Notes under the pieces: generated by a model
What the model saw: the letters and a program-made list of their open reading frames with translations, nothing else
What the model was told of the DNA's origin: nothing
The model's database searches: none
Shown: positions 15,563-64,000 of the stretch, in pieces
Numbering within the stretch: position 1 is the first letter of the stretch
Layout: each line of letters starts with the position of its first letter
Translations under genes and position numbers: made by a program
From: Eledone cirrhosa
Lineage: Eukaryota
NCBI GenBank assembly: GCA_964016885.1
Contig: OZ024740.1
Span: 41,416,001-41,480,000, forward strand
DNA length: 64,000 nt
Direction: 5' to 3'

Positions 15563-15658
15563 TCTATCTATCTATCTATCTATCTATCTATCTATCTATA
15601 TATCTATCTATCTATCTATCTATCTATCTATCTATCTATCTATCTATCTATCTATCTA
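15563..15658 (+). repeat. (TATC)n microsatellite forming the 5' flank of Tx1 copy 1
   Basis: Directly visible; the upstream sequence is not Tx1 3' UTR. Confidence 0.95.
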
Positions 15659-18187
15659 AGCAGATGTGCGAGGCTTTTCAAAAGCACTTTGCCGGATTGT
15701 TCGGAAGGGGCGGGGGGCCGGTTGGGGACGTGGACTTCGGTCCATACCTCGACGGCCTGCCGCGTCTCTCGGACAGGGAGGCGAAGTCCTGCGAGGAGCC
15801 GATTTCAGCCGCTGAGATAGAGGACGTGCTGAGCCAAGGCGGCAAACGCAAATCCCCGGGTCTCGATGGTCTTCCATACGAACTATATCTAGCTATGCCG
15901 GACTTGTTCCCCGAACTCCTCGAGGCGGTCTACTGCAACTGGCAACAGAACGGGAGAATTCCCTGTGCTGTGACCAAGGGCGTAGTCACGCTAGTGAGGA
16001 AGGACGAGAACAAGGGGGACGATATAAATAATTTCAGGCCCATAACTCTGCTAAATACAGAGTTACAGATTTTGGCCAAGGTGCTAGCAAAGAGGTTGGC
16101 GCTTGTCGTGGGCAACCTGGTGGGAGATGCGCAGACATGTACTATCCCGTCCAGGTCCATCCACGATAACCTCCACCTCATGCGATACATCATAGAGAGG
16201 GTTGGGAACGAACCCGGCTTTGGTGGGGCCCTGATCAACTTGGATCAATCTAAGGCATTCGATAGGGTCGACCATGGTTACCTGGATGCGGTGCTAGCGG
16301 CGGCAGGCTTCGGACCCGTTTTCAGGGGCTGGATCAATGCCATGCACAGCAGCCGCATCTGCTCTAGGGTCAAGGTGAACGGCTACCTCTCGGAGCCGTT
16401 CGAAATCGCGCGGTCCATCCGACAGGGGTGCCCTCTCTCCTCCCTTCTGTATGTAATGACTCTAGAGCCACTGCTGTGGAAGTTGGAGTTGTTGCAGGGC
16501 ATCCCGTTGGAACCGGGATTGCGGAAAGCGGTGTCAGCCTACGCCGATGACGTAACAGTAATGGTGTCGACGGCCTCGGAAATCAGGGCGATCGGCACCT
16601 TACTGGAGGAGTACGAAAGGTTTACAGGGGCTAAGCTGAACCGGGACAAGTCGATCGGTCTGCAACTCGGCACGTGGGAGGGGCAGATCGATGCCCTCCG
16701 ATGGCGTCGTCGGGCGCTGGACGGAGGGCCCGGTGAAGTTGCTCGGGGTCTGGTTCGGACCAGACCTCCAGGTGGAGAAGAACTGGGGTGAGGTGACGAA
16801 CAGGGTGTTTGCACTGACCCAGAAGTGGGCCGAGTGCAAACTGTCCCTGAAAGGACGGGCGGAGGTGGCGAACACTTATATAGCGTCCGTCATCTACTAC
16901 CGCCTGACCGTTGTGCCTTGCCCAAGGGAAACGCTCGCCAAAATGGAGCGCGCACTCTTCCAATTCCTTTGGAAGAAGCGGGCTCCTATGGTGAGGAGAT
17001 CCATCTGCTGTCAACACCCTTCGAAAGGAGGGCTGGGGATGCCGTGGTTAATGATACTTAAACACGCATTAAGGCTACGGCACCTTCAGGTATTCCTCTC
17101 CGGTCAACCGGTGTGGGCCCCGTTTGTGAGGCGAGCCTTTCCCAGACTCGTCTCACTCACCGAGCTGCAATCCTGGGTCAAGCAAAGACCGAGAAAACTG
17201 GGCGCCTGGCACACCGAGTGTGCCCAGGCACTCACGGCTCTCTGGCAGGCGGACCCGGCTGTCAGTGGAGAATCCACCTCGTCATTCTATAGAGGGCTGG
17301 TGGTTAGCAGGTGCGACGACGCCCTCGGAGAAGCCCTAGGTATGGAGGAAGACGAACTGGCCAACCTGTTCGGTAGGACATTCAGCCCGGGACCCATGGA
17401 TAACTTCCAGAGGTCCCTGGCCTGACAATGCTACAGAAGGGCTCTGCCCGTTCGAGAAAGGCTCTACAGACACGGGCGCCCGGGTAGGGACCCATCGAAA
17501 AAGATCTGTCCCAGATGCGTGTGCGACGAGGAAACCGTTGCACACGCATTGGTACACTGCTCGGGCATTGCCGATCTGTGGGGTTATGTCGAACAACTGC
17601 TGTCAAGGGTGGGACCAATCCGGTTGACCACCGAGTCTATTGTAACGATCAAGCCGCCTCCCCTCTTCAAAAACGAAGGAGAGGCGGTGTTTCTGTGCGT
17701 AATAGCCATGGCGAAAGAGGTTGTATGGTGGACGCGTCTGAAAGGACTGAGGTCAGACACCTTTCTCTCTGGCCAACAACTGGTCCGTTTCTTCCGATAT
17801 CATTTCGGAAGAAGGATCAGGATGGAGAGAGAGGTGCTGCACCCCAGCCGTTTCTATGAAAGATGGGTGAAAGTGGCGAGAATGGCCCGTGTGAATGGGC
17901 CTTCACTCTACATCAGACTATAGGTGAGGAAGATGAAAGACCAAGGGAGCACCCCTTCTCTGTGCTCCTGAGGAGAAGGGTTGCACACTTTTTTCGGGGG
18001 TGTGTGCGACCCCCCAAGGCGCCTCCTCTCTATTGAGGACTTTGTTATAAATTTTATTTTTTGTTATATTTTATTTTATTTTTATATATTGTTATTGCCT
18101 CCTCCTTATTGAGGACGCCTTGTTTTGTAAACTCCCCCCATTGTACTTGTCCCACTTTTGATGCCCTGGTGGCAAATAAAAGAAACA
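15659..18187 (+). mobile_element. Tx1/L1-clade LINE copy 1, 5'-truncated (RT, CCHC, 3' UTR)
   Basis: KSPGLDG, NFRPITLLN, LDQSKAFDRV, RQGCPLS, AYADD and GGLGMP. Frameshift near 16680 and stop at 17423. AATAAA at 18175 followed by (TATC)n. Confidence 0.93.
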
Positions 18188-18280
18188 TATCTATCTATCT
18201 ATCTATCTATCTATCTATCTATCTATCTATCTATCTATCTATCTATCTATCTATCTATCTATCTATCTATCTATCTATCT
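18188..18280 (+). repeat. (TATC)n spacer between Tx1 copies 1 and 2
   Basis: Directly visible. Confidence 0.95.
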
Positions 18281-61420: not shown

Positions 61421-61650
61421 GTAAAGAAGTAAAGGAGAGGGGAGCACCTTCTCCATGTGCTCCCCGGGCAAAGGATTGCACACTTTTTCGGGGGTGTGTG
61501 CAACCCCCATCACGTCCCCTCCCTTTTGAGGTTATTTTCGATTATTTTCATGTTACACCCTTTTTACTCGATTATATGTAAACTCCCCCTTTGTATTTGT
61601 CCCTTCTTTTTATGCCTTTATGGTAAATAAAGAAATCTATCTATCTATCT

Positions 61651-64000
61651 CTCTTTCTGTCTGACGTGTGGAACATCGCCGGTAAGCTTTTTTGTTAATT
61701 TCTATGCAAAAAACCGATCTAATTGTTTGAAAAAACACAACACTTTGTAGATTAACCCCCAAGCTGAATTGTCAGCCGGGTGGTAATCCCATTTTTCGCC
61801 CCTGTAGGGGCGAAAATGTTATTTTAAAAATTTGTTTTAAAATATCAGATTTTACAAAGTTAAAAACTTGAGCAACACTAGAACGCTGGAGAACGTTAAT
61901 AGAGAAAAGAGAGAGAAAGAGGCAGATATTAACGTTATATCTGCTTCTGCTACAATGGACGTCGCCATAGATACAACTGTCACAAAAGAAGAAAATATAT
62001 TAATATTTGAAAATTTTACAACTTCTACCGCCGAAGCGGAAAAATATAACAATAACACGCAGGAAAACACAGCAAAAAAAAAACCATTGACATACATACA
62101 CATGAAAAAGACATCAACAACTCTACAGATACATCTACACATAAAGTTTCACCTCAACAATGAACTGAGATTTCCAACAAAGATAACAACATCATCAACA
62201 GCAACACCACACAAAAAAAGAAAATGTCTTTCGCTGACACAGTGAACAAGAAACAAGATATTATAAATCTTGATATCTCCAACGCAAGAGATATGCTCCA
62301 GCAAGGAAGAAAATTTGTAAAAGAAAGAGGTAGGTTTAGAATTAACTCACCCCTTGAAATAAAGGAAGACACAAACCGCCGATCAGTCACTTTTAGGACT
62401 GTGTCAAATTCGTCAAAAAAGCCAACATTTGTTAATCAAGCAGATATAGAAGATTCTTTCAAGGAAATTCTAGCAAATGTCGATTTTCCCCAGCGAGGAA
62501 AACAGTACGGAAGTGTTTCCATACTGTTTAAAAGCGAGGCACTCGCCCCAAAAAACTCTGTGACACAAATATTGTCAAAAGCATACACCTTTTTCCCTAC
62601 ATACATGGGGAAAAGGACACAAAAAATAAAAATAAAAAACATGCCTCCAAGCATTAACATCTGGTGGATCTTGGTTGGCTTCGTAGAGCCAGAAACAGAC
62701 ATAATACTTTCGATACGAAAATCTATTCGACAAAGGTGGGCGGGCACAGATTTGGAGATTCTATTGCAAATGAAACGGGAGAGAATCTCCAAAATATCCG
62801 AAAGAGTCGTTATTGATAATAACAACAAAATAAACATTTCGGTAGAAGGACGAAAATTTCATTGCTTTCGCTGTGGTAGCACAGCTCACCTAAAAGCCTC
62901 TTGTCCACAAACACACAACAACAACATCATAAAAAAACGCTATTACCAACACCAACACCAAAACAACCACCACCACCACAAGTACAACGACAGACAAAAC
63001 GAGCAACCACACCAAAACAAACAGACACTCAACCAACAACAACAGAAAAAACAGAGACAACACCCCTGAAGAACACATCCCCACTCCATCCCACTCCATC
63101 AAACACTACCACAAACACACATACCGAAACACCACCACCACCACACACCATACCCTTACCCCACACACCTGACGATGATTATTCATCGACGGATGAAGCT
63201 GCTTCTCCTTCTTTAAGTGAAGAAGAGGGAGAACCGCGGAAATCTAAAAATCAAAAAAAGAGACACCACAAAACCTCCCAAACTCCAATCACCAACACCA
63301 ACACACAACCACAGACACAAACAACAACACAAACAACACCACAGTCAAACATCCCCTATCAGCAAAACCAGCACCAACACCACCCCAAACACAAGCACCC
63401 ACCATAAAAAGAAAACTCCCGGACGAACAACAAACTAAAACAACACAACAAAAACACAAACAACAATACGCATACATCAACACAAACAACAAGAGTTTTA
63501 TGGAGGTCATCTCCCAAAACCCCAAGGTGGAGACGGAGGGCAAAACTTTCGTCAAGGCAGAATCGTCTCCACACCTTAAACTTATAAGGGTTTCTATGGA
63601 AACCTATAATGACCTTAAAAATAAATTTTCACAGGACGTGGGCAACCCCTGCCACAAACCCATCAATCGCGTCCTGTTAAAATGTTGCCCCACCCCACCC
63701 CACCCCACCCCACCCAATCCAGCACCAAAATGGAAAAACCCGATCTCCAGGAAACGAAAAGGTAAGTGCACCTTTCGTCCCTTTTCTCCAACTCTTCTCC
63801 ACCAACATGGCTAGTTTACGAGTTGGAACCGTGAATGTGCGTGGCCTAGGGATGCCCTGGAAACAGGGCCAACTTTTAAACGACTTTAGGTCACACAGTA
63901 TGGATGTGATAGCCATCACCGAGTCCAGGATCCACAACAGGCAGCAACTAACCCCCATCTTCGACGACTTTGAGATCTACGCATCTCTCTGGTGGAGGTG
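61651..64000 (+). mobile_element. Tx1/L1-clade LINE copy 6: 5' UTR, frameshifted ORF1 and start of ORF2 (runs off the window)
   Basis: Knuckle CFRCGSTAHLKASC. ORF2 ATG at 63807 reads MASLRVGTVNVRGLGMPWKQG. Begins right after TATC repeats. Confidence 0.9.

Follow-up and report, generated by a model that had tools for sequence, protein, structure and literature searches.

Young Tx1-like LINE families of Eledone cirrhosa very probably insert at C^TAT(C), mostly within (TATC)n, and stack into head-to-tail arrays

In a stretch of 64,000 nucleotides of the Eledone cirrhosa genome (contig OZ024740.1, positions 41,416,001 to 41,480,000; hereafter the window), copies of a long interspersed nuclear element (LINE) lie head to tail with (TATC)n at their junctions. 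The question raised by this locus is whether the repeat is the target into which the elements insert or a tail which they carry along. The flanks of related copies make it highly probable that five young Tx1-like LINE families insert at C^TAT(C) in a single orientation, mostly within (TATC)n. Insertion would likely proceed by target-primed reverse transcription, with the endonuclease favouring the site and the RNA 3′ end likely pairing with it.

The window holds six copies on the + strand in two arrays, assigned by nucleotide identity to five families (copy 1 to family A, copies 2 and 4 to B, copy 3 to F, copy 5 to C and copy 6 to E; Table 1). All five visible 3′ ends consist of AATAAA(A)GAAA and two family-specific bases (CA, CA, TA, CA and TC), followed by (TATC)n; poly(A) was absent from all five. 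Five of the six 5′ ends come after TATC, with 5–11 T/C-rich bases in between at copies 5 and 6. At copy 4 the 5′ side is (TG)n rather than TATC, and no target-site duplication (TSD) was found. The four perfect (TATC)≥4 runs of the window all adjoin a copy, and it has no (GATA)≥4 run. The original prediction had described the six same-strand copies in two arrays, the 3′ ends without poly(A), the five 5′ ends behind (TATC)n and a free-standing tract before copy 1 with no Tx1 3′ untranslated region (UTR) upstream. The window coordinates bear out each of these points, the two family-specific bases being an addition and copy 4 the exception.

Flanks were then collected from the 3.0-Gb assembly as ~9 kb around each of 77 copies (37 of family C, 20 of A and 20 of B). 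Three of 40 family C regions were excluded, being the continuation of the window and two regions next to loci that were in the count before. All queries ended before TATC; selection was therefore blind to the flanks, yet favoured the youngest copies. Background was taken as 400 kb from 40 fixed coordinates. In 57 of the 77 copies, tandem TATC lay no more than 30 nt from the 5′ junction, compared with 1.0% of random background positions, and the GATA strand was found upstream of the junction in none of the 77. All 23 full-length copies carried the repeat, as did 34 of 54 truncated ones, and in family E 29 of 30 5′ ends, the window copy included, come after TATC. At the 3′ side, TATCTATC occurred within the first 16 nt in 21/30 flanks of family C, 22/30 of B and 14/30 of A (background 0.06%); poly(A) was seen in 0 of 150 3′ ends from five families. 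The 3′-flank sets of families A, B, G and H each contain the query's own copy. One repeat in more than 20% of flanks, the yardstick of PMC4494074, is thus exceeded at the 5′ side (57/77) and at the 3′ side of each family (14–22 of 30).

The background contains nine tracts of at least three TATC units in 400 kb, of which about four follow a Tx1 3′ end or piece by eye; this count was used since an automatic flag for such ends was too strict and marked none. As only about 4/9 of the tracts are tied to Tx1 ends, free targets exist elsewhere in the genome. The expectation that long TATC tracts all touch a copy therefore holds in the window and fails genome-wide. A tandem repeat is not strictly needed, since a lone CTAT or TATC can be enough, whether it lies in (TA)n, in (TACC)n or in unique DNA (loci L039, L136 and L144). 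(TC)n adjoins only isolated copies (L155, L166), and a (TC)n/(TTC)n target does not fit these elements. A majority of truncated copies without 5′ TATC had been named in the original prediction as the outcome that would reduce the repeat to a tail; the 34 of 54 with TATC, against 1.0% in the background, form the opposite majority. Its notion of a single (TATC)n-specific family survives in that TATC is mainly the target, and is altered in that several families are involved, which prefer C^TAT(C).

A sharper distinction between target and tail is provided by TSDs. A strict test was applied, in which a string of 10 bp or more common to both flanks had to start near the 3′ end, end near the 5′ junction and hold non-TATC bases; it superseded a loose test (28/77 against a null of 9.6%). 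Of the 77 true pairs 23 passed the strict test, as did 228 of the 5852 mismatched pairs (3.9%). Hits that were artefacts (L132, L165), of array type (L041, L056) or inside longer tandem repeats (L054, L141, L163) were dropped. By eye, about 16 clean, locus-specific TSDs were left, mostly of 13–21 bp, among them L032, L039, L046, L049, L057, L136 and L149, to which copy 5 is added; examples are TCTATCTATCTATAGATT at L049, CTATATATATGTGTGTGT at L039 and TATCTTATTATAG at L136. Nearly all begin directly at the constant end of the element, and an extra RNA-derived unit is needed only in L032 and L047. Since the TSD mostly starts at the constant end, so that no unit need be supplied by the RNA, TATC is mainly target and not tail. 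The TSD of copy 5 is 19 bp long and includes non-repeat bases, which places the insertion of copy 5 between copies 4 and 6. As a separate observation, the 3′ flanks of L154 and L156 contain the last 12–30 element bases plus TATC in tandem, as from repeated priming or slippage.

Several observations weigh against (TATC)n as the target. In pure repeat most TSDs are not measurable, and the sampled copies are the best-scoring and youngest rather than random draws. Of the 54 truncated copies, 20 have no tandem TATC in the 30 nt at the 5′ junction, and at least nine of these have neither repeat nor TSD (L048, L051, L055, L058, L060, L133, L134, L147, L166); target-site deletion or later rearrangement is assumed for them. 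Family A is clearly looser, with its 14 of 30 3′ flanks; (TA)n or (TACC)n is the setting of several of its copies. Three misses at the 5′ side are accounted for, L162 being a misplaced junction that really follows TATC, and L155 and L158 being rearranged.

The abundance and identity of the copies bear on their age. The 3′ 337 bp of copy 5 returned 964 first-look candidates, and all 40 that were scored are 100% identical; with the same length of copy 1, 40 of 40 scored places match at 100% (rounded). First-look candidates numbered 2220 for family B and 961 for family A. At 16 family C loci a 1156-codon ORF2 frame is open, with 97.7–99.0% identity to copy 5. The lineage is a young one, and its activity probably continues. 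Separately, 52–57% of the words of the family C 3′ part are present in sequencing runs X5, X6 and X7, filed under three other organism labels; going by this occurrence, family C would either be common to related species or have been transferred recently. A contig of X6 spans the family C end together with its short TATC run. Among the listed contig pieces of runs X1, X2, X3 and X6, none bridges the junction of copies 5 and 6 with 31 letters on both sides.

Relatives with other targets were found using an outside protein query (39% identity), so that the sample was blind to family and flank. A sister clade, H/J (L351–L380, L441, L443–L446), has about 70% DNA identity and the same 3′ layout, and 29 of 30 H 3′ ends run into (ATT)n (background 1.2%). 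All five full-length H/J copies examined have (ATT)n at the 5′ side, two of them stacked behind another H/J end, and a short copy of this clade (L354) has a TSD of 16–17 bp. In family G (L381–L410, L442; for example G000:C1:214558259), TATCTATC was found in only 1 of 30 3′ flanks. Most of its copies occupy C^TATATC sites in a degenerate minisatellite rich in CT, among whose units are CTCTCTATATCAATTAACACCAAA and CTCTATATCTACTACACGGAA, and four short copies (L386, L388, L392, L399) have TSDs of 15–20 bp. A count of the minisatellite motif in 23/30 flanks is circular, the pattern having been drawn from the same flanks; the 5′ evidence for H/J and G consists of the five full-length ATT copies and a few short ones. 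In a nucleotide tree of nine rows over 2.2 kb of ORF2, the order is ((((A,C),G),B),E), H and J stand apart, and all nodes have 100 ultrafast bootstrap; a protein tree came from a quick search without bootstrap. Since G is nested among the TATC families, it likely drifted from a TATC target. The endonucleases of A, C and G are mutually 75–80% identical, and 60–63% identical to those of H/J. Other repeats recur right after ATT tracts, for example one starting GAATGCCATGGTTGACGG and a repeat like a short interspersed nuclear element, GGCGGTGGATTGGCAG.

How would such insertions arise? Flanks, orientation, TSDs, stacking and the absence of poly(A) from the DNA copy were read directly from the genome, and the remaining steps would follow established target-primed reverse transcription. 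The endonuclease would nick the (GATA)n strand, somewhere among the matching bases. The RNA, ending in AAUAAAGAAA-NN-UAU(C) and so extending by a few bases into the flank of its donor copy, would prime on the ...GATA-3′ end of the nicked strand by 3–8 nt of pairing; hence poly(A) would not be copied. With a second nick some 18 bp beyond the first, 3–5 repeat units would be duplicated, and each side of the new copy would keep a usable target. Copies arriving later, of whatever family, could then land beside earlier ones, giving mixed head-to-tail arrays. Enzyme preference together with short pairing is ranked first since the Tx1L endonuclease is sequence-specific in vitro, where it nicks almost only its own target (in passages of PMC1950540), and since the pairing alone is too short for the enrichment observed.

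The targeting itself is retained in the alternative that survives best, which differs only in what selects the site. Here the endonuclease would nick loosely, and only sites that pair with the read-through 3′ end of the RNA would be primed. The RNA end would then mostly set the target, families would switch by inheriting the donor flank, and the (ATT)n and (TATC)n clades and family G would be steps of such switching. We consider this explanation possible and rather doubtful. The terminal bases are in phase with each family's own target (GAAA-TC-TATC in C, GAAA-CA-TATC in A and B, GAAA-TA-TATATC in G, GAAA-TC-ATTATT in H and GAAAA-C-ATTATT in J), a single CTAT is enough at the three loci with a minimal site, and family G has changed its neighbourhood with an endonuclease still 75–80% identical to those of C and A. 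A comparable model has been proposed for RTE elements, in passages of PMC6007223, and L1 nicking in vitro is less specific than L1 integration, in passages of PMC1950540. In contrast, the RNA-derived overlap in clean TSDs is often 3–5 nt, too short alone for an enrichment from 1% to 74%; the left flank is usually tandem TATC far past the TSD; and the TATC and ATT clades differ in the endonuclease too (60–63% identity), including a few positions in the hairpin-loop region. If the RNA did set the site, the target of a retrotransposon could be changed through few RNA bases, and these families would be a ready panel for tests of microsatellite targeting.

It is very improbable that (TATC)n is no more than an RNA tail, its 5′ association arising because copies accumulate or persist where repeats are dense. 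Other LINE clades often have microsatellite tails, according to passages of PMC6007223, and both the third or so of truncated copies without 5′ TATC and the Tx1 tails among the background tracts would suit such a view, but L039, L048, L054 and L057 have zero complete tail units. The locus-specific TSDs, which contain TATC units, contradict it, and many 5′ tracts have no Tx1 end upstream. Moreover, the insertions seldom use (TA)n, although its abundance is about 90-fold higher (3.9% against 0.04%), and the strand bias is strict.

Stacking is common in the lineage. Another copy lies within 200 bp of 42 of the 77 copies, compared with 4 of 147 background positions; the neighbours are on the same strand in 47 cases and on the opposite strand in one, L155, where the neighbour is part of the copy's own 5′ rearrangement. 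In the window, copies 2 and 4 are 93.5% identical, other measurable pairs 66–85% and the families overall 66–94%; the arrays mix such families and carry TSDs, and are therefore no collapsed duplicates. Misjoining of the assembly at microsatellites, or duplication in tandem, is scarcely credible, as either would suit the few arrays elsewhere with identical junctions on both copies (L041/L069, L056), which could be duplications, but not window neighbours of different families, the matching 19-bp TSD of copy 5, several junction tracts of only 12–30 bp or isolated copies with the same flanks. An 18-bp TSD restores several TATC units on both sides, enough for self-seeding. The earlier proposal that each insertion leaves a target for the next thus stands as to seeding, with the source being mostly the TSD and not the RNA tail. 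At L062, L168 and L131 the 5′ truncation of the new copy falls where, by homology, the older copy downstream begins, a hint that homology may aid 5′ joining in arrays. At L067 a family C copy sits between two family B pieces, and the upstream piece has an internal end, GCAAACA followed by TATC, that resembles the normal GAAACA end. A further repeat, which starts TAGGGCGGGTAAAATTCCCG, comes after a short run of TATC at each of two unlinked loci (L172:6626 and 7574; L143, ~1345 oriented) and is possibly another TATC-associated element.

Table 1. Repeat tracts, LINE copies and open reading frames (ORFs) of the two arrays, in window positions.
Feature	Position	Strand	Remarks
(TATC)n tract	15562–15658	+	free-standing; landing site of array 1; no Tx1 3′ UTR upstream
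Copy 1, family A	15659–18187	+	5′-truncated inside ORF2; young
(TATC)23	18188–18279	+	between copies 1 and 2
Copy 2, family B	18280–24094	+	full length, reading frames interrupted
Short (TATC)n	24095–24124	+	one variant unit
Copy 3, family F	24125–24666	+	~540-bp 3′ fragment; then (TATC)3 at 24667–24678
Copy 4, family B	53127–55715	+	5′-truncated, after (TG)n
(TATC)n tract	55716–55812	+	tract end contains the 5′ copy of the 19-bp TSD of copy 5
Copy 5, family C	~55819–61637	+	full length, both ORFs open; between copies 4 and 6
ORF1 of copy 5	frame 55997–57478, first Met 56048	+	CCHC knuckle CHICAGRGHLKAAC
ORF2 of copy 5	Met 57983–61420	+	1145 aa; APE endonuclease, reverse transcriptase, C-terminal zinc region
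(TATC)3 plus TCTCT	61638–61654	+	3′ copy of the TSD of copy 5
Copy 6, family E	~61650–64000	+	5′ end; continues past the window end

The classification of the elements was based on the proteins of copy 5. ORF2 matches the Pfam families PF03372, PF00078 and PF13966, the last under its curated cut-off, and a profile of this ORF2 and five relatives matches human L1 ORF2p at E 2e-134, compared with 1e-44 for R2. The layout is that of the L1 group, with an N-terminal APE domain, a reverse transcriptase and a C-terminal cysteine region, and the TSDs, the 5′ truncation and the lack of long terminal repeats (LTRs) agree with it. The label Tx1 clade is tentative and follows the domain layout; no named Tx1 reference ORF2 is among the homologues and clusters returned, where relatives are unnamed or 'hypothetical'. 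The nearest named protein relative is from Argonauta hians (64%), which fits an octopod host. In the Tx1 clade, ORF1 carries an RNA-binding region and a CCHC knuckle. ORF1 of copy 5 had no Pfam hit, and its language-model features have a likeness of 0.90–0.92 to RRM/CCHC clusters, at the level of features only. Among more distant relatives (about 30%), the P0061 cluster holds eleven near-identical ORF2 proteins of the limpet Patella caerulea with closely spaced locus tags, which suggests another stacked, target-specific array. A metagenome scan gave 80 distant loci (24–41% identity), short and remote, none with a (TATC)≥5 run.

Insertion into simple repeats has precedents. Dong is an element of the R4 clade with a restriction-like endonuclease, and Waldo and Mino belong to the R1 clade. 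Passages of PMC3812793 give (TAA)n as the target of Dong, (ACAY)n of Waldo and (AC)n of Mino, and passages of PMC4640811 give (TG)n for Togen. These are likewise microsatellite-specific non-LTR elements, Dong with the repeat class of the ATT sister clade; they differ in clade, and none is listed there for TATC/GATA. Closer in habit are Kibi on (TC)n and Koshi on (TTC)n, teleost Tx1-clade elements (Kojima and Fujiwara 2004, as cited in passages of PMC4494074 and PMC3812793). Like the present families they are APE-type LINEs specific for a microsatellite, a likeness that concerns the target habit; the families described here use (TATC)n/C^TAT(C) and their sister clade (ATT)n, the host is an octopod, and at least five coexisting families share a target and stack. 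In crocodilians, Tx1-1_Crp, Tx1-5_Crp, Tx1-6_Crp, Tx1-1_Gav and Tx1-2/3/5/8_AMi use (TTCC)n/(TTTC)n (passages of PMC4494074), again related Tx1 families of one genome that prefer a tetranucleotide repeat. The repeat unit and the phylum differ, and here two further targets occur in close relatives, one of them nested in the TATC clade. Xenopus Tx1L, with an APE–reverse transcriptase ORF2 and a sequence-specific endonuclease, is a mechanistic precedent (passages of PMC4494074 and PMC1950540), whereas its target is the DNA transposon Tx1D and no simple repeat (passages of PMC4494074).

Passages on Octopus vulgaris repeats report 13 recently active L1-Tx1 families (PMC13282606), and the words 'target', 'TATC' and 'GATA' do not occur in the main text of that paper. 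A TATC/GATA target is likewise absent from the passages of PMC4640811, PMC8869645 and PMC5786205, and no LINE with such a target was found in the titles, abstracts and passages searched; Repbase and Dfam lay outside that search, so that a prior report is possible. The targeting is real and well supported, and the TATC, ATT and minisatellite targets extend a habit known from fish and crocodilian elements rather than define a new element class. It accounts for LINE arrays of mixed composition, and a TATC marker in a genome of this kind would be multi-locus. How APE-type elements target microsatellites is poorly understood in mechanistic terms, according to passages of PMC3812793. One genome here offers young relatives, some with open ORF2, that use three targets at endonuclease identities of 75–80% (TATC against minisatellite) and 60–63% (TATC against ATT), so that swaps of domains and RNA ends could separate enzyme choice from RNA pairing.

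Two further features of the window were noted. Upstream of array 1, positions 11454–14394 contain three + strand open frames of 240–330 codons. Pieces of a palindromic repeat, resembling a miniature inverted-repeat transposable element, lie within (TA)n at 7594–7799, 40543–41057, 44699–44981 and 51336–51529, and also upstream of the family G copy L442.

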